Positions 1-6,102 of a stretch of DNA of 10,137 bases are shown one piece after another (the stretch's first letter is position 1; every line of letters starts with the position of its first letter). The notes beneath the pieces were generated by a model. That model saw only the letters and a list, made by a program, of their open reading frames with translations, searched no databases and had not been told where the DNA came from. Source of the stretch: a virus (Duplodnaviria > Heunggongvirae > Uroviricota > Caudoviricetes); the IMG/VR virus record IMGVR_UViG_2529292716_000008; one strand, given 5' to 3'. A program made the translations under genes and the position numbers.

Positions 1-1239
1 ATGAGCAGCGCAATTCATAGACTTAGCGACACTCTTTTACGAAAATTAAGCGGATCACCAACCACAAAAAACGCCTTTTTTAATGACGGTGGCAATCTTA
101 GCGTAAGACATTCCACCAGCGGCCTGTTAACCTGGTATTTCACTTACAGGGCCGGAACTGGCAGGCAGGTATCACCGGAACGCCTGAGACTGGGCAACTA
201 TCCCGATCTGAGCCTGAAAGCAGCCAGGGAAAAAGCGGCACAGTGTCGCGCCTGGCTGGCTGAGGGGAAAAATCCGCGCTATGAGCTTAATCGTGCTGTA
301 CAGGATGCGTTAGCCCCCGTGACAGTTAAGGAAGCGCTCACTTACTGGCTTGAATCGTATGCAAAGGAAAAGCGCACTGACTACGAATCACTGAAAAGCC
401 GGATCAATAAACACATAATCAGCCAGATTGGCGCTTTGCCGTTGGAAAAATGCGAGCTACGGCACTGGTTGGCATGTTTTGACCAGATGGCAAAGCGAAG
501 CCCAGTATCTGCCGGATTTTTGCTACAGGTATGCAAACAGGCGCTTAAGTACTGCCGAAAACGACGATACGCAATCAGCAACGTTCTTGATGATATGGTT
601 GTCGGTGATGTGGGAAAAAAAGCAGAAATAAGCGAGCGCGTACTAACAAACAAGGAGCTTGGGGAATTACTCCGCGCCCTGGATGAAAAAATTTACCCAC
701 CGTACTACAGCGCCCTGATTCGCCTCCTGATTGTCTTCGGATGCCGTGCCACTGAGCTAAGACGCTCTGAGGTCCAGGAATGGGATTTTAAAGAAATGCT
801 CTGGACCGTGCCGAAAGAACACAGCAAAACGAAGGTAGCAATATTCAGGCCAATACCGGAAGCGATCTTGCCGTTCGTAACGAAGCTGGTGGAGCAGAAC
901 AGGCACACGGGATTATTGCTCGGAGAACTGAAAGGGCAATCATCCGTATCAGAGTACGGAAGAACGGCACACAGACGCATTAATCAAGCCCCCTGGACGT
1001 TGCACGACATCCGGCACACGTTTACAACGATGCTGAACGATTTAGGCGTGGATCCTCATGTAGTGGAGCAGCTAACCGCGCACCAGTTGCCAGGAGTGCA
1101 ACGAGTCTATAATCACTCCCGTTATCTCGATGCAAAACGTGACGCTCTTAATCTATGGGTTGAGCGTCTCGAGCTTCTCCAGAACAATGATGAAAAAATC
1201 GTTGTTATGACCCCGCGAATTTACTCCCAAAATTCTTGA
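1..1239 (+). CDS. int: Tyrosine recombinase / integrase, P4-like family
   Basis: 412-aa ORF starting at window position 1. C-terminal catalytic signature of tyrosine recombinases is visible: HxxR box (LHDIRHTF) and a downstream Tyr (RVYNHSRY). Length and layout are typical of P4-type integrases of integrated elements. The att site and any flanking tRNA lie outside the window. Confidence 0.9.
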   Translation: MSSAIHRLSDTLLRKLSGSPTTKNAFFNDGGNLSVRHSTSGLLTWYFTYRAGTGRQVSPERLRLGNYPDLSLKAAREKAAQCRAWLAEGKNPRYELNRAVQDALAPVTVKEALTYWLESYAKEKRTDYESLKSRINKHIISQIGALPLEKCELRHWLACFDQMAKRSPVSAGFLLQVCKQALKYCRKRRYAISNVLDDMVVGDVGKKAEISERVLTNKELGELLRALDEKIYPPYYSALIRLLIVFGCRATELRRSEVQEWDFKEMLWTVPKEHSKTKVAIFRPIPEAILPFVTKLVEQNRHTGLLLGELKGQSSVSEYGRTAHRRINQAPWTLHDIRHTFTTMLNDLGVDPHVVEQLTAHQLPGVQRVYNHSRYLDAKRDALNLWVERLELLQNNDEKIVVMTPRIYSQNS

Positions 1240-1316: not shown

Positions 1317-1534
1317 TATGTGTCAACTATCGAAAAAAATTGAAATGTCTTCTTCTGAGTTCTTATTCTCTGTTTCTTGATTATTCCAATACCTGATGGT
1401 TTATCTATTTGTTTTTAATGAGGTAATTCAGGTGTCATGCCAAATGGCGACATTTTTTGTTGCGTCGCTTAAAAACTCGTGACACGATTTTAAACACTAA
1501 CGAGCTTCTACGAACCTTAGCGAACAAAGCCTTT

Positions 1535-1543
1535 AGCATGGTT
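1535..1543. repeat. IS1 target-site duplication, left copy (AGCATGGTT)
   Basis: The 9 bp immediately left of the IS1 left end are identical to the 9 bp immediately right of the IS1 right end (2312-2320). Confidence 0.9.
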
Positions 1544-1598
1544 GGTGATGCTGCCAACTTACTGATTTAGTGTATGATGGTGTTTTTGAGGTGCTCCA

Positions 1599-1874
1599 GT
1601 GGCTTCTGTTTCTATCAGCTGTCCCTCCTGTTCAGCTACTGACGGGGTGGTGCGTAACGGCAAAAGCACTGCCGGACATCAGCGCTATCTCTGCTCTCAC
1701 TGCCGTAAAACATGGCAACTGCAGTTCACTTACACCGCTTCTCAACCCGGTACGCACCAGAAAATCATTGATATGGCCATGAATGGCGTTGGATGCCGGG
1801 CAACTGCACGCATTATGGGCGTTGGCCTCAACACGATTTTACGTCACTTAAAAAACTCAGGCCGCAGTCGGTAA
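1599..1874 (+). CDS. insA: IS1 InsA (transposition inhibitor / N-terminal part of InsAB' transposase)
   Basis: 91-aa [43 protein letters not shown]... with zinc-finger-like CxxC...CxxC and HTH region, recognised as IS1 InsA. Confidence 0.9.
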
Positions 1875-2296
1875 CCTTGCGCATACAGCCGGGCAGTGAC
1901 GTCATCGTCTGCGCGGAAATGGACGAACAGTGGGGCTATGTCGGGGCTAAATCGCGCCAGCGCTGGCTGTTTTACGCGTATGACAGTCTCCGGAAGACGG
2001 TTGTTGCGCACGTATTCGGTGAACGCACTATGGCGACGCTGGGGCGTCTTATGAGCCTGCTGTCACCCTTTGACGTGGTGATATGGATGACGGATGGCTG
2101 GCCGCTGTATGAATCCCGCCTGAAGGGAAAGCTGCACGTAATCAGCAAGCGATATACGCAGCGAATTGAGCGGCATAACCTGAATCTGAGGCAGCACCTG
2201 GCACGGCTGGGACGGAAGTCGCTGTCGTTCTCAAAATCGGTGGAGCTGCATGACAAAGTCATCGGGCATTATCTGAACATAAAACACTATCAATAA
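1793..2296 (+). CDS. insB: IS1 InsB reading frame (expressed as InsAB' transposase by -1 frameshift at the A6C motif)
   Basis: ORF in the -1 frame relative to insA, overlapping its 3' end. The A6C slippery motif at 1850-1856 is the known IS1 frameshift site. Coordinates are those of the open frame from the ORF track, not an independent start. Confidence 0.85.
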
Positions 2297-2311
2297 GTTG
2301 GAGTCATTACC

Positions 2312-2320
2312 AGCATGGTT
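2312..2320. repeat. IS1 target-site duplication, right copy (AGCATGGTT)
   Basis: Identical to 1535-1543 and immediately abuts the IS1 right end. Confidence 0.9.
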
Positions 2321-2425
2321 GTGTTTTTAATTTAAGAGGTGAAAAAGAATCTAAGTAATATCCGATCTCATATATCTACAGCTAAGAGAAAAGTTTATAT
2401 ACGTAATTTTTATGTAGGTTTTTGT

Positions 2426-2635
2426 ATGCGTGAAATAAATGAAGATCGCGTAATCCGTGAGGATGAATGTCGTAAGTTAACTGGAGTGTGCCGCACTACA
2501 CGTTACGAACTGGAGAAAAAAGGGCGCTTTCCGTCACGTCTTAATCTGGGCGGTCGTTCTGTAGGGTGGCTGCTGTCCGAGGTTATGGAATGGGTTAAAA
2601 GCCGGGATCGCATTAATTCAGGTAAGGCAGTGTAA
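2426..2635 (+). CDS. alpA: AlpA-family (MerR-like HTH) transcriptional regulator
   Basis: 69 aa from the ATG at 2426, in frame within track ORF 2339..2635. Carries the AlpA-type motif ...LTGVCRTTRYELEKKGRFPSRLNLGGRSVGWLLSEVMEWV... Size matches the ~70-aa AlpA family. I prefer the ATG at 2426 over the upstream GTG at 2339, which would add a low-complexity 29-aa leader. Confidence 0.8.
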   Translation: MREINEDRVIREDECRKLTGVCRTTRYELEKKGRFPSRLNLGGRSVGWLLSEVMEWVKSRDRINSGKAV

Positions 2636-2662
2636 AGGGGAGCATATGACACATAAAACAAA

Positions 2663-2682
2663 GGCGACCTGGGGCGGTCGCC
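2663..2682. terminator. GC-rich hairpin between convergent transcription units (putative bidirectional terminator)
   Basis: GGCGACC (2663-2669) / GGTCGCC (2676-2682) stem with a 6-nt loop. On the minus strand it is followed by TTTGTTTTAT (good T-tract); on the plus strand by AGTTTGG (weak). Sits just after the alpA stop (2635) and downstream of the minus-strand unit. Confidence 0.45.
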
Positions 2683-2746
2683 AGTTTGGAAACACTAAAC
2701 ATAAGCATGTCAATGATAGCCGCTATCAGGCTGGTGGGCAATGCTA

Positions 2747-2923
2747 TCAGTCTGTTTCAGTGCGTTGCCATAACTGCGAAGCTCTCTCCTTTGATGAGTA
2801 TTCTTTAAGGTACTTCTCAAGGGCAAAAGAACACGGCGCGAATCGTTCTGATTCATGCTCTTTCTTTCTGCGTCGTCTTTTTCGTGCAGGTGATGTTTTT
2901 TTGGTTGATTCTTCGTTGGTCAT
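2747..2923 (-). CDS. Possible small basic protein (58 aa), very tentative
   Basis: Minus-strand ORF translated by hand: MTNEESTKKTSPARKRRRRKKEHESERFAPCSFALEKYLKEYSSKERASQLWQRTETD. It lies between the minus-strand regulator gene and the hairpin terminator. There is no convincing SD, and the region is purine-rich on the minus strand, which produces K/R/E-rich ORFs by chance. Below the 60-aa cutoff of the ORF track. Confidence 0.2.
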   Translation of the reverse strand: MTNEESTKKTSPARKRRRRKKEHESERFAPCSFALEKYLKEYSSKERASQLWQRTETD

Positions 2924-2980
2924 TGTGTGCGCCTGTAAAGCAATGCGCCGGAGTTCCTCACACCACGGCGCTGATAGTGA

Positions 2981-3286
2981 TTATTCTGATTCTTTGGCCT
3001 TGCGGCGCTGGAGTTCTTCGCGTGCAACGGTGATAAGCTGCCCGATTTCCTCCGCTGCCTTGATGCCGATTTGTTCGACATTAGCTAGGGCATCCAGTGA
3101 AGACACAAGGGGATTTTCTCCACTTCCTTCTGCCTGGCGCCTGGCGATCTCACCGCGTACAGCCGTAACTATAAAATTCGCTTTAGTTTCCCCTGGCTGT
3201 AGGGATGCCTCAATGCCACTCACTACTTCATGTGGAAATCTGGCATTCAGTTGCTGTGACTTATTGTTAACAGAACTCCTGGACAT
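2981..3286 (-). CDS. Small DNA-binding regulator, possibly ribbon-helix-helix type (candidate island repressor)
   Basis: 101 aa from the ATG at 3286 (MSRSSVNNKSQQLNARFPHEVVSGIEASLQPGETKANFIVTAVRGEIARRQ...), preceded by a strong SD (GGAGGTG, plus-strand complement at 3293-3299). The N-terminus has a beta-strand / helix / loop / helix pattern compatible with an RHH fold. Divergently oriented from the downstream + operon, with repeated operator-like sites in the shared intergenic region. Fold assignment is inference only. Confidence 0.55.
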   Translation of the reverse strand: MSRSSVNNKSQQLNARFPHEVVSGIEASLQPGETKANFIVTAVRGEIARRQAEGSGENPLVSSLDALANVEQIGIKAAEEIGQLITVAREELQRRKAKESE

Positions 3287-3329
3287 GTTTGCACCTCCCA
3301 TTAATAACGGGATGCAGTGTAATACAAAA

Positions 3330-3384
3330 GTGAATACCAAAAAAGACTTGAAATGGTATTCACCTAAATGTAATGTGAATACCA
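3330..3384. promoter_or_regulatory. Three copies of a 10-bp operator-like site GTGAATACCA (direct, inverted, direct) in a divergent promoter region
   Basis: GTGAATACCA at 3330-3339, its reverse complement TGGTATTCAC at 3354-3363, and GTGAATACCA at 3375-3384. Centre-to-centre spacing is 24 and 21 bp. Located between the minus-strand regulator start (3286) and the first + operon gene (3487). Confidence 0.55.
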
Positions 3385-3421
3385 CAAGTGCTGATACATG
3401 CAATTCAGCAATTGAAACGAC

Positions 3422-3458
3422 GAAGCCCCGCAAGTGTCGTTACCACTCGCAGGGCTTC
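3422..3458 (+). other. Imperfect hairpin in the leader of the + operon
   Basis: GAAGCCC (3422-3428) pairs with GGGCTTC (3452-3458). An inner CGCAAGTG / CACTCGCA near-complement extends the stem. Ends ~30 nt upstream of the ATG at 3487. No T-tract, so not a classic terminator. Confidence 0.3.
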
Positions 3459-3486
3459 TAACCAACAACGTAAACGAGGAGCCGTT

Positions 3487-4003: not shown

Positions 4004-4303
4004 ATGAGAACGTATTTATCTGGCTTGACTGCCAGCGGTTATGCACACCCCAAAATTATCCCCGGCGCTATTTATCTGGATAAGAACGGTAACAGAGTAA
4101 CGGTAAAAGAACTGATGTTTGACCGTGTGTATTTTATTCGTGATGGCTATTCATTTCATAGTTCGCTGAACGTGGAGATCTTTATTAGCAGATTCAGGCG
4201 GGAAATCCCGCTTTCCAGAAATAACCATGTGTCATGTATGGATGTTGATAAAAAACTACAGGAACTGAAAAACATGATTGCCGCGTGGAGAGAGCAGAAA
4301 TGA
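4004..4303 (+). CDS. Hypothetical protein (99 aa)
   Basis: ATG at 4004, 7 nt after the upstream stop. Its stop overlaps the primase start (ATGA at 4300-4303). Weak SD. Protein MRTYLSGLTASGYAHPKIIPGAIYLDKNGNRVTVKELMFDRVYFIRDGYSFHSS... No recognisable motif. Confidence 0.5.
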   Translation: MRTYLSGLTASGYAHPKIIPGAIYLDKNGNRVTVKELMFDRVYFIRDGYSFHSSLNVEIFISRFRREIPLSRNNHVSCMDVDKKLQELKNMIAAWREQK

Positions 4304-6102
4304 AAAAAGCGCCAAATTTAAAACACCAGCCGCGTGACAAAATGACGGAAGTCATCATTTTTGCGGGTAATGATGCGTGGGCACATGCGAAGCAGTGGCA
4401 GGAACAGGACGGGCGACTGGCTGGCGACAGCGTGCCTCCTGTCTGGCTTGGAGAACAACAACTTGCCGAACTGGATAAGCTGCAAATCGTACCGGACGGA
4501 CGCTATCGGGTGCGTCTCTACCAGGCGGGGTTATTGCGTCCGGGGCTTGTTAATACCATCGGGCAGAAACTGGCAGCGGCAGGTGTCAGGGATGCTGATT
4601 ATTACCCTGAAGGAATGCACAGCCAGAAACGGGAGAACTGGCGCGAATATCTGGAACGTGAACGGGCAGAGCAGGCGGAAAAGAAAAAGGTAGTTGAACT
4701 GCCTGTAAAGAAAAAAGAGCGGGTAAAAGACGATAACGCTTCATCACTGGCGCTTAACCAGATGGGAGCAAGTCAACGCGGCGAAGTTCTCCTGGCACAT
4801 TATGGCGGTGAACTGGCGATTCATGCTGACTCTGACACTGTTCACCATTACAACGGCGTTGTATGGGAGCCAGTACAGGATAAAGAATTACAGCGAGCTA
4901 TGGCACAGATTTTCATTGATGCGGAGATCAGCTATTCGCAGAACGCCATTAAATCGGCGGTCGATACCATGAAGTTAAGTTTGCCTGTAATGGGGAATAC
5001 AGCCCGTAACCTGATTGGATTCAGTAACGGGGTATTTGATACCAGAACAGGTAATTTTCGGGAGCATAACAAAAACGACTGGTTGTTAATTGCCAGTGAA
5101 TTACCTTTCAGCCCACCAGCAGAGGGGGAAACGCTGGCAACACATGCGCCGAATTTCTGGAAGTGGTTACGCCGTTCGGTGGCTGAGAATGACCGCAAGG
5201 CGGATCGCGTACTGGCTGTATTATTCATGGTGCTGGCGAACCGGTACGACTGGCAGTTATTCATTGAGGTAACAGGTCCAGGGGGAAGTGGTAAAAGCGT
5301 GATGGCGGAGATTTGCACCATGCTGGCGGGTAAGGCCAACACAGTATCGGCAAGCATGAAGGCGCTGGAAGATGCAAGGGAACGCGCGTTAGTGGTTGGC
5401 TTTTCGCTGATTATCATGCCGGATATGACCCGCTACGCTGGTGATGGGGCAGGGATTAAGGCCATTACAGGCGGTGACAAGGTGGCAATTGACCCGAAAC
5501 ACAAAGCCCCCTACTCAACGCGTATTCCGGCAGTAGTGCTGGCGGTTAACAATAACGCCATGTCATTCAGTGACCGCAGCGGGGGGATCTCACGTCGTCG
5601 GGTGATATTCAATTTTTCGGAAGTTGTACCGGAGAACGAACGCGACCCCATGCTGGCAGAAAAAATAGAAGGAGAGCTGGCGGTTGTGATTCGCCACCTG
5701 CTTACTCGTTTTTCTGACCAGGACGAAGCTAAACGCCTGCTGTATGAGCAGCAGAAATCAGAAGAAGCTCTGGTGATAAAACGCGAGGGCGATTCGCTGG
5801 TGGACTTCTGCGGCTATCTCATGTCGTCGGTAATGTGTGATGGTCTGTTAGTGGGTAATGCCGAAATTATTCCGTTCAGTCCGCGCAGGTATCTTTATCA
5901 CGCCTATCTGGCATATATGAGGGCACACGGATTCGGTAAACCTGTAACACTGACGCGCTTCGGTAAAGATATGCCGGGGGCAATGGCGGAATATGGCAGG
6001 GAGTATATGAAACGGAAAACGAAGCACGGTTTGCGTTCAAATGTGACCCTGACAGAGGATTCAGAAGACTGGATGCCATCATGTGCAATAGGTCACAAAT
6101 GA
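4300..6102 (+). CDS. P4 alpha-like replication protein: primase / SF3 (D5-type) helicase with C-terminal origin-binding region
   Basis: 600 aa from the ATG at 4300, with SD GGAGAGAG at 4287-4294. The track's GTG at 4285 is an alternative start. Walker A GPGGSGKS and a downstream ITGGDKVAIDPKHK motif are typical of the P4-family primase C-terminal / D5 helicase region. Followed immediately by TGTTCACC iterons, the P4 alpha binding sequence. Confidence 0.85.
   Translation: MKKAPNLKHQPRDKMTEVIIFAGNDAWAHAKQWQEQDGRLAGDSVPPVWLGEQQLAELDKLQIVPDGRYRVRLYQAGLLRPGLVNTIGQKLAAAGVRDADYYPEGMHSQKRENWREYLERERAEQAEKKKVVELPVKKKERVKDDNASSLALNQMGASQRGEVLLAHYGGELAIHADSDTVHHYNGVVWEPVQDKELQRAMAQIFIDAEISYSQNAIKSAVDTMKLSLPVMGNTARNLIGFSNGVFDTRTGNFREHNKNDWLLIASELPFSPPAEGETLATHAPNFWKWLRRSVAENDRKADRVLAVLFMVLANRYDWQLFIEVTGPGGSGKSVMAEICTMLAGKANTVSASMKALEDARERALVVGFSLIIMPDMTRYAGDGAGIKAITGGDKVAIDPKHKAPYSTRIPAVVLAVNNNAMSFSDRSGGISRRRVIFNFSEVVPENERDPMLAEKIEGELAVVIRHLLTRFSDQDEAKRLLYEQQKSEEALVIKREGDSLVDFCGYLMSSVMCDGLLVGNAEIIPFSPRRYLYHAYLAYMRAHGFGKPVTLTRFGKDMPGAMAEYGREYMKRKTKHGLRSNVTLTEDSEDWMPSCAIGHK

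Follow-up and report, generated by a model that had tools for sequence, protein, structure and literature searches.

The control region between int and alpA of a phage satellite in Shigella sonnei is interrupted by a full-length IS1 element, which transposed there once, in an ancestor of present-day S. sonnei, and has since been inherited as part of the IS1 expansion of this species. The identity of the element and its history as one inherited insertion are, at the least, practically certain. The explanation that best accounts for the observations as a whole, and that is held with good confidence, is that of an ordinary inherited IS1 that most likely makes alpA less inducible and contributes to the decay and immobilization of the satellite. 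The window analyzed here, i.e., the whole stretch of DNA of 10,137 nucleotides, is from S. sonnei and differs by a single base (position 7244) from strain 866 (CP022672). Positions are those of the window, and the features discussed are collected in Table 1.

Table 1. Features of the insertion and of the surrounding int-alpA region.
Feature	Position	Strand	Remarks
Tyrosine integrase (int)	1-1239	+	412 aa; Phage_integrase and Arm-DNA-bind_3 domains
Perfect 12-nt dyad with 13-nt gap	1281-1317 (arms 1281-1292 and 1306-1317)		Allele-specific; overlaps phased AATATC repeats at 1292 and 1302
Distal sigma-70-like site, TTGAAA-18-TATTCT	1340-1369	+	Best consensus match in the IS-free spacer; now upstream of IS1; putative, by consensus only
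Near-palindrome AAAACTCGTGACACGATTTT	1472-1491		Conserved; core CGTGACACG at 1478-1486
Two TGTTCG-type boxes (TTGTTCGC, GGTTCGT)	1510-1527	-	10-bp phase; end 8 bp before the duplicated target; in 10 of 10 relatives
Left target-site duplication, AGCATGGTT	1535-1543		9 bp; single copy in IS-free relatives
IS1	1544-2311	+	Assigned by length and ends; 99.9% identical to annotated IS1A-family copies; identical junctions in 11 S. sonnei loci
IRL (left terminal inverted repeat)	1544-1566	+	18 of 23 positions match the reverse complement of the right end
insA	1599-1874	+	91 aa, open; Zn_ribbon_InsA and HTH_Tnp_IS1 (Pfam) on the same gene in S. sonnei loci
insAB' transposase	1599-2296	+	232 aa, via -1 frameshift on A6C at 1850-1856
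IRR (right terminal inverted repeat)	2289-2311	-	Carries outward-facing -35-like TTGGAG at 2298-2303
Right target-site duplication, AGCATGGTT	2312-2320		9 bp; perfect match to the left copy
Proximal weak sigma-70-like site, TTAAGA-18-TAATAT	2332-2361	+	Between IS1 and alpA; putative, crude PWM score 7.7
alpA	2426-2635	+	69 aa, intact; Phage_AlpA PF05930, 1.7e-16; phrog_2790

The host island

The island that carries the element lies between yljB/cspD and clpS. By comparison with the island-free E. coli NBRC 3301, its att core is ATGATAGTTAT[C/T]TATCAT, which occurs once in the empty site of that strain and at both island ends in S. sonnei locus L019. In window coordinates the two cores fall at -183 and ~10675, giving an island of ~10.9 kb with IS1 and of ~10.1 kb without the 777 bp of IS1 and duplication. 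An 18-bp repeat, AATGGTGTAGTTAATTTT, was also considered as the att core and was dropped after alignment with island-free E. coli; it is an arm motif that is found twice per arm.

The genes of the island are, in addition to int and alpA, two small minus-strand genes (one YlcI/YnfO-like), an Icd-like gene, a DUF4222 gene, a primase with D5_N/DUF5906/Pox_D5 domains, an SSB gene, and a fusion of a ClpP-like prohead protease to a major capsid protein. The primase starts at the ATG at 4300; the version that begins with the GTG at 4285 gave no match when looked up. The protease-capsid fusion is the only structural gene; neither portal nor terminase ORFs were found in the window, no homologue of terS or of rpp could be recognized there, no large ORF in it was left unaccounted for, and an Rfam scan over its whole length returned no match. 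A 271-aa plus-strand ORF (2646-3461) is probably spurious: it matches no family, and the minus-strand ORFs that overlap it have PHROG matches and are annotated in the RefSeq records of relatives. An extended form of AlpA starting from the GTG at 2339 (98-aa ORF) was rejected as well, as indels in the relatives A34 and CREC-629 break the frame before the ATG; RefSeq annotates the 69-aa form.

With an integrase, att repeats, the alpA-primase order, a size in the range of about 10-15 kb and neither lysis nor tail genes, the island has the structural hallmarks of a phage-inducible chromosomal island and can be classed as a PICI-like phage satellite, while the full head and packaging set of a cf-PICI is absent from it. 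The protease-capsid fusion gene, the homologues of which are intact in relatives (630 aa), is put out of frame by a 13-bp deletion near 8793. This frameshift suggests that the present copy is not fully functional. In most S. sonnei loci, an IS600 (99.8% identity, 1267 bp) is present in the primase gene at window position 5825; it is absent from the lineage of the window. Given the capsid frameshift and the IS600 in the primase of most strains, the island is decaying, a defect that the preliminary description had not recognized. Another IS1 insertion, aqpZ::IS1, is located 8.3 kb upstream.

The IS1 element and its target site

The element has a length of exactly 768 bp and is co-oriented with int and alpA. 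Its ends, GGTGATGCTGCCAACTTACTGAT on the left and the reverse complement of ATCAATAAGTTGGAGTCATTACC on the right, form the terminal inverted repeats, and the second reading frame, insB' (1793-2296), is open like insA. The IS1 frameshift motif, TTAAAAAACTC, begins at 1848 and places the A6C run where the two frames can be joined into the transposase. A 232-aa InsAB' product with a DDE_Tnp_IS1 domain is called in locus L019, the IS1 of which is the same as that of the window, and precomputed Pfam matches (PF03811, PF12759, and PF03400) are available for the product of the same IS1 in S. sonnei loci. Over its 768 bp the element matches features annotated as "IS1-like element IS1A family transposase" in E. 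coli genomes, and it is 1 nt apart from the neighboring aqpZ::IS1 copy. IS1 is itself present in 4971 of the 5426 E. coli genomes that were compared for element identity. All testable defining features of the IS1 family (IS1A type) were found, and the full-length IS1 that the preliminary description had recognized is borne out by its length, inverted repeats, insA/insB' frames, and A6C motif. The copy is thus structurally complete, with all of its sequence features intact. Published S. sonnei genomes already annotate an IS1 transposase gene at this copy, and insertions of this sort are textbook matter.

Both ends of IS1 are directly abutted by the 9-bp sequence AGCATGGTT, which has only these two copies in the window when both strands are scanned. 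The chance of nine identical bases at two fixed positions is about 4^-9, or 4e-6. Across the insertion junction, GCCTTTAGCATGGTT is immediately followed by GGTGATGCTGCC. For the reconstruction of the empty site, 1544-2311 and one copy of the repeat were deleted, and the remaining sequence was aligned to related islands. The reconstructed spacer is colinear with the IS-free islands of E. coli O111:H8 7-58 72A and STEC17-190, both of which are continuous through CCTTTAGCATGGTTGTGTTTTT with one AGCATGGTT, and both of which agree with the window at every base over more than 80 bp to the left and, to the right, through alpA. Because the empty site aligns in this manner with a single AGCATGGTT, the element arrived by simple transposition, which duplicated 9 bp of target, and the site is not a rearrangement junction. 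The perfect target duplication and the simple insertion into the int-alpA spacer that had been described from the window are in this way confirmed by an empty site in relatives. The comparison proposed at that time, which looked for a single-copy target in IS-free islands, returned the predicted junction, and the same junction was seen in both islands.

An assembly artefact, or a junction produced by IS-mediated rearrangement instead of a simple insertion, would be conceivable on general grounds, as this genome has many copies of IS1, at which short-read assemblies break. Against this, 11 S. sonnei loci that were assembled independently, nine of them on multi-megabase contigs, show the same junctions and the same duplication, and both flanks are colinear with IS-free relatives in which the target is single-copy. 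The probability of an artefact or rearrangement is accordingly regarded as negligible.

Distribution and age of the insertion

The exact 412-aa integrase of the island is found in S. sonnei genomes, including that of Ss046 (CP000038). All 11 S. sonnei loci that were fetched, those of Ss046 and strain 866 among them, have the same IS1 junctions and the same duplication. Within the element, two lineages can be told apart, each by one private substitution: the lineage of the window (L019-L021) has T at 1878 and C at 2186, and the Ss046-type lineage (L003-L010) has C at 1878 and T at 2186. The aqpZ::IS1 copy has C at both positions, which suggests that C/C is the ancestral state. The T at 1878 leads to a Ser to Leu replacement in InsAB' relative to other copies, and the difference at 2186 is synonymous. 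Because the junctions are identical in all 11 loci and the element has diverged in place, the insertion is one inherited throughout the species and not a strain-level event. Draft genomes agree with this picture as far as they reach. Of the 1829 index blocks that hold the exact integrase, 1460 sit on contigs of 5-10 kb, a size that is expected because assemblies would break at the flanking IS1 copies; one draft contig of 8464 bp stops 78 bp into IS1 at the same junction, and another starts inside the right repeat.

The preliminary description had called the insertion clean and probably recent. The first part stands, and the second does not in the sense of a strain-level event, given its presence in 11 of 11 loci and the substitutions in two lineages; the insertion is young in absolute terms yet common to S. 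sonnei. No other structural variant is as common in Shigella genomes as insertions of IS1. The shared insertion fits the IS1 expansion described for S. sonnei, each genome of which has about 240-300 IS sites, with IS1 accounting for roughly half and with a bias to intergenic DNA, and about half of the IS sites are common even between S. sonnei lineages (PMC7373316). Drift through the bottleneck of the species would account just as well for the fixation of the present insertion, which is therefore uninformative on function.

This bears on the proposal that the insertion was fixed by selection, as a form of silencing or domestication in which alpA, once cut off from helper signals, no longer permits a costly induction or the loss of the island. 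The occurrence of the insertion in all S. sonnei loci examined would agree with selection, as would the location of IS1 between conserved candidate regulator sites and alpA (see below) and the further inactivating lesions in the replication and capsid genes. However, bottleneck fixation is the default, in view of the share of IS sites that the S. sonnei lineages have in common (PMC7373316), and the remaining lesions resemble ordinary decay. There is also no parallel event. The spacer is carried by 322 complete E. coli genomes, and it is in one piece in 322 of 322, with no interruption at this site in any of them; a spacer was counted as intact where one piece covered at least 80% of the 409-bp IS-free query, which an IS at the site would prevent. 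Selection for silencing is therefore considered improbable.

Anatomy of the int-alpA spacer

The left repeat begins 295 bp after the int stop (1239), and 105 bp separate the right repeat from the alpA ATG, in agreement with the earlier estimates of ~300 and ~105 bp. Without IS1 the spacer measures 409 bp and is 67% AT, as compared with 51.5% AT for the whole window. The insertion thus adds 777 bp between the ~295 bp on the int side of the spacer, much of which is conserved, and the 105 bp that directly precede alpA.

Conservation of the spacer was assessed in an alignment of ten relatives, with identities down to 73%, in which conserved blocks flank the target on both sides. Downstream, the segment 2321-2425 is nearly invariant and is the most conserved part of the spacer; it includes AAGAGGTGAAAAA, TATATC.ACAGC, and TATACGTAA-TTTTATGTAGG, the conservation reaching the ATG. 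Upstream, conserved sequences include the near-palindrome, CTACGAACCTTAGCGAACA at 1507-1525, and the TGTTCG-type boxes. The GTGACACGATTTTA block is identical in nine of the ten relatives and is partly kept in RM9245. The dyad nearest to int is present in three of the ten, and the rest have phased AATATC repeats at that place. Both dyads of the preliminary description, near 1283-1316 and 1470-1492, are real. That IS1 splits the region which holds them is also correct, with the qualification that both lie to the left of IS1, so that they are separated from alpA and not from each other. A 34-aa minus-strand ORF that starts in the target in IS-free relatives was rejected, as most relatives have AGCAAGGTT there and thus lack its ATG.

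The TGTTCG motif is also found in the att arms, with four copies in the left arm and three in the right, again in a 10-bp phase, and a second arm motif, GGTGTAGTYAAT, adjoins the TGTTCG motifs and is present twice in each att arm. When the spacer was shuffled 20000 times, a phased TGTTCG pair like the one that it contains arose only 8 times. In a comparison of k-mers shared between the alpA spacer and the other intergenic regions, no clear common operator emerged; this returned single copies of TGTTCGAC only, at 3072, 7260, and 9778. The boxes probably bind a protein of the island, as candidate sites of either AlpA or Int (arm sites). AlpA would be the more economical ligand, with the arm-binding domain of Int as the alternative. 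Relatives of AlpA are excision factors. AlpA is favored because of this kinship and because it is a known auto-activator and excision trigger in EcCICFT073. No usable definition of the AlpA binding site of PICIs emerged from a search of the literature.

Promoters around the insertion and the probable effect on alpA

IS1 is polar, and its own transposase promoter is weak and is repressed by InsA. In the two islands EcCICFT073 and EcCIMP1, a helper phage induces AlpA, which in turn is an activator of its own promoter (PMC6092414, PMC11773190), and in EcCICFT073 it triggers excision (PMC6092414). What the insertion would do to alpA depends on which of two sigma-70-like sites, one on either side of IS1, serves as the promoter. 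If it is the distal site, IS1 would sit in the leader, and the polarity of IS1 would then block alpA. If it is the proximal site, which is absent from a stricter consensus scan, the IS/flank junction would fall at about -50 of the predicted start, and the TGTTCG boxes and the palindrome would be displaced by 777 bp. In either case, helper- and AlpA-dependent input would likely be weakened. The likeliest effect is thus a regulatory one, a weaker or lost inducibility of alpA, because the upstream near-palindrome and the phased TGTTCG pair are now 777 bp further off; this effect is, on balance, somewhat more likely than not. It is in keeping with the preferred reading, plausible from the layout of the region, that alpA has been uncoupled from its promoter or its operators.

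The insertion could, on the other hand, be regulatorily silent, if the alpA promoter and operators are all located within the 105 bp downstream of IS1, which would make IS1 a passenger. Several observations fit such a neutral insertion: the segment 2321-2425 is the best conserved of the spacer and contains the weak TTAAGA-18-TAATAT site, alpA is intact and of the same allele as in the IS-free O111:H8 island, and in E. coli ST131 the transcription of ugd was unaffected by a co-oriented IS1 in front of it (PMC8764528). The conserved blocks are, however, not confined to this segment, as the near-palindrome and the TGTTCG pair, the latter shared with the att arms, are upstream of IS1, as is the best consensus promoter. 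Nor does the published alpA reporter of EcCIMP1, which used -449 to +50, lend support to the sufficiency of ~100 bp (PMC11773190). A neutral insertion is thus less likely than a loss of inducibility, though it deserves to be taken seriously.

An effect in the opposite direction is also conceivable, in which IS1 drives alpA, either by a hybrid promoter or by read-through from the transposase promoter, and AlpA becomes constitutive or otherwise deregulated. The inverted repeat of IS1 carries an outward -35 (PMC8764528), and hybrid promoters that are formed in this way have been documented for afaA, blaTEM, and acrEF (PMC8764528, PMC9330008). In addition, the element is co-oriented with alpA and just 105 bp upstream of it, and no intrinsic terminator is predicted on the plus strand from IS1 to alpA. 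Yet a co-oriented IS1 raises expression only where a -10 is found at the right spacing, and expression is otherwise lower or unchanged (PMC8764528). When the hexamers at spacings of 15-22 bp from the -35 of IRR were listed, those at 16-18 bp past TTGGAG (2298) were TGTGTT, GTGTTT, and TGTTTT, none of which is -10-like; the sole good -10-like hexamer near IRR, TTTAAT, stands at 22 bp. A consensus scan likewise detected no promoter at the junction of IS1 and its flank, and in the mirror case, with IRL reading toward int, no -10 was seen on inspection by eye. A hybrid promoter from the outward -35 of IRR was therefore rejected as a candidate, and the earlier suggestion that IS1 supplies an outward promoter is left unsupported; an IS1-derived promoter that would replace the lost input is not predicted. 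Read-through is disfavored by the weakness and repression of the transposase promoter and by the polarity of IS1. Overexpressed AlpA in EcCICFT073 leads to excision and to uncontrolled, growth-impairing replication (PMC6092414), yet all S. sonnei loci seen, among them those of the lineage with an intact primase, stably keep the present island, and keep it at the same site. Activation of alpA by IS1 is consequently held to be very unlikely.

On the preferred reading, that of an alpA with reduced inducibility, the insertion would help to lock an already defective island in place. A more far-reaching version may be proposed, in which the TGTTCG boxes are AlpA sites and AlpA is both the excision factor and an auto-activator, so that IS1 would act as a natural cis-knockout of the feedback loop, and perhaps of the helper signal, that immobilized the satellite in the ancestor of S. 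sonnei, possibly under selection. This version is speculative, and its correctness is doubtful.

Comparison with known systems

IS1A-type copies from the IS expansion of Shigella (Hawkey et al. 2020, PMC7373316) have the same 768 bp, the same insA/insB' organization and A6C motif, and a 9-bp duplication. Like them, the present insertion is intergenic, common across S. sonnei, and has pseudogenes and further IS insertions in its vicinity (aqpZ::IS1, and an IS600 within the primase gene). There is no difference in kind between this copy and those (PMC7373316), its lineage-specific Ser to Leu replacement (T1878) being the feature that sets it apart. The insertion carries little weight in itself and adds one more route of decay for phage satellites in an IS-rich pathogen.

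For the placement of IS1 relative to a gene, the closest comparison is with E. coli ST131, where IS1 copies upstream of afaA, osmB, and ugd are likewise just upstream and co-oriented, and where IS1 sites are enriched in genomic islands (PMC8764528). As the present junction is without a suitably spaced -10, it would be nearer to osmB and ugd, which show a decrease or no change, than to afaA, which is activated (PMC8764528), insofar as this can be judged from sequence.

The island itself has the same order of int, alpA, and primase/replication genes as EcCICFT073 and EcCIMP1 (PMC6092414, PMC11773190), and its AlpA belongs to the same family (PF05930). In those two islands, AlpA is needed for excision, replication, and transfer (PMC6092414, PMC11773190). 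In contrast to them, the present island is located at yljB/cspD-clpS, encodes a protease-capsid fusion, has an alpA spacer that is split by IS1, and carries inactivating mutations. It represents a natural allele in which alpA is physically parted from the greater share of the control DNA upstream of it. Should the promoter and operators of alpA be mapped in an IS-free relative, a comparison with this allele would reveal which upstream elements are required for induction of this island family by the helper phage.

An island of the same family at the same chromosomal site, that of E. coli AST240 (L002), has also been struck by an IS1 (annotated as IS1B family). In AST240 the IS1 lies in the coding gene of the primase and not in the alpA control region, and it represents an independent event.

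IS1 copies around the int-alpA spacer

In S. sonnei, the orthologous IS1 copy between int and alpA carries lineage-specific substitutions at window positions 1878 and 2186. T2186, found in the Ss046-type lineage, is synonymous, and T1878, found in the window lineage, changes TCG to TTG and thereby Ser to Leu in InsAB', directly past the insA stop; the window's IS1 is thus structurally intact, yet differs from the consensus transposase. Another IS1, which breaks aqpZ in S. sonnei about 8.3 kb upstream, is co-oriented with the window's copy and differs from it by 1 nt. The segment between the two (ybjD-ybjX-macAB-cspD-yljB-int) is composite-transposon-like and deletion-prone, and its bracketing by two IS1 copies accounts for draft contigs of ~8.4 kb.

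Repeats, att sites and the alpA transcription unit

Only 3 of the 10 related islands aligned over the spacer have the perfect 12-nt dyad that follows int; at its position, most of the 10 carry three AATATC repeats in 10-bp phase. Therefore, the conserved feature is the phased repeat, not the dyad. Phased boxes also occur at the ends of the island, whose true att core is ATGATAGTTAT[C/T]TATCAT: TGTTCG is repeated at a 10-bp phase in both att arms (4 copies in the left, 3 in the right), and GGTGTAGTYAAT is present twice in each. A minus-strand TGTTCG pair lies just left of the IS1 target, and TGTTCGAC occurs as single copies at window 3072, 7260 and 9778.

Downstream of alpA, a plus-strand ORF of 271 aa was considered as a gene; it has no family match and is overlapped by two minus-strand ORFs that match PHROG families, the counterparts of which are annotated as YlcI/YnfO-like in relatives. 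The plus-strand ORF is unlikely to be a real gene, which leaves alpA as an apparently monocistronic unit. A hairpin 3' of alpA scores as a terminator on the minus strand.

Features of the island and its relatives (window positions unless a locus is named; negative values lie upstream of the window start)
Feature	Position	Details
Dyad after int	1281-1317	
AATATC repeats, window counterpart	1292-1308	
TGTTCG pair	1510-1527 (-)	
Plus-strand ORF	2646-3461	
Minus-strand ORFs	2747-2923 (-), 2981-3433 (-)	match PHROG families
Hairpin 3' of alpA	2663-2682	
Capsid-flanking repeat	7096-7300 and 9615-9830	about 78% identity
ORF pieces of protease-capsid gene	7730-8875 and 8839-9597	
Frameshift deletion	point about 8793 (8780-8800)	13 bp
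att arm regions	L019 5518-5701; L019 16240-16393	-183 to -1; about 10540-10692
aqpZ IS1	L003 2441-3208	
IS600	L003 15825-17091	insertion point 5825, inside primase 4300-6102; 99.8% identity, 1267 bp including duplication
IS1 of E. coli AST240	L002 7387-8084	annotated IS1B family

The protease-capsid gene and its flanks

The gene encoding a prohead protease-major capsid fusion is unbroken in two E. coli relatives (L001 and L012; 630 aa) and is frameshifted in the window by the 13-bp deletion; therefore, the sole structural gene of the island is a pseudogene. A second deletion in this region, near 9586, is of 9 bp and in-frame.

The capsid gene is bracketed by an imperfect direct repeat. Both copies open with a terminator-like hairpin and a T-run, followed by CTCCTGGTGGGGG.GGCCTGTCCACGGGGCGGG…GCGCGGAAAAA.GCG.ATTTTT and, further on, by TTTTTGTTCGAC and TTTACAAAAAA. 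Possible roles of the repeat, which has no match in Rfam, are those of a packaging site, a regulatory element or a boundary between modules.

Lesions of the primase gene

IS600 lies within the island primase in most S. sonnei loci (L003-L005 and L007-L010), and the primase is unbroken, at 600 aa, in the window lineage (L019-L021, strain 866). IS600 is a second, later IS event that divides S. sonnei into two haplotypes. In a further S. sonnei locus (L006, GCA_000783795.2, about 14300-15930), the distance between SSB and DUF4222 is about 715 bp shorter than its window counterpart, and there is no called primase gene; this suggests a primase deletion in this strain.

The primase of a related island in E. 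coli AST240 contains an independent IS1. The AST240 island occupies a chromosomal site identical to that of the window's island, but its late module, with major capsid, head decoration and small terminase genes, is unlike that of the window's island.
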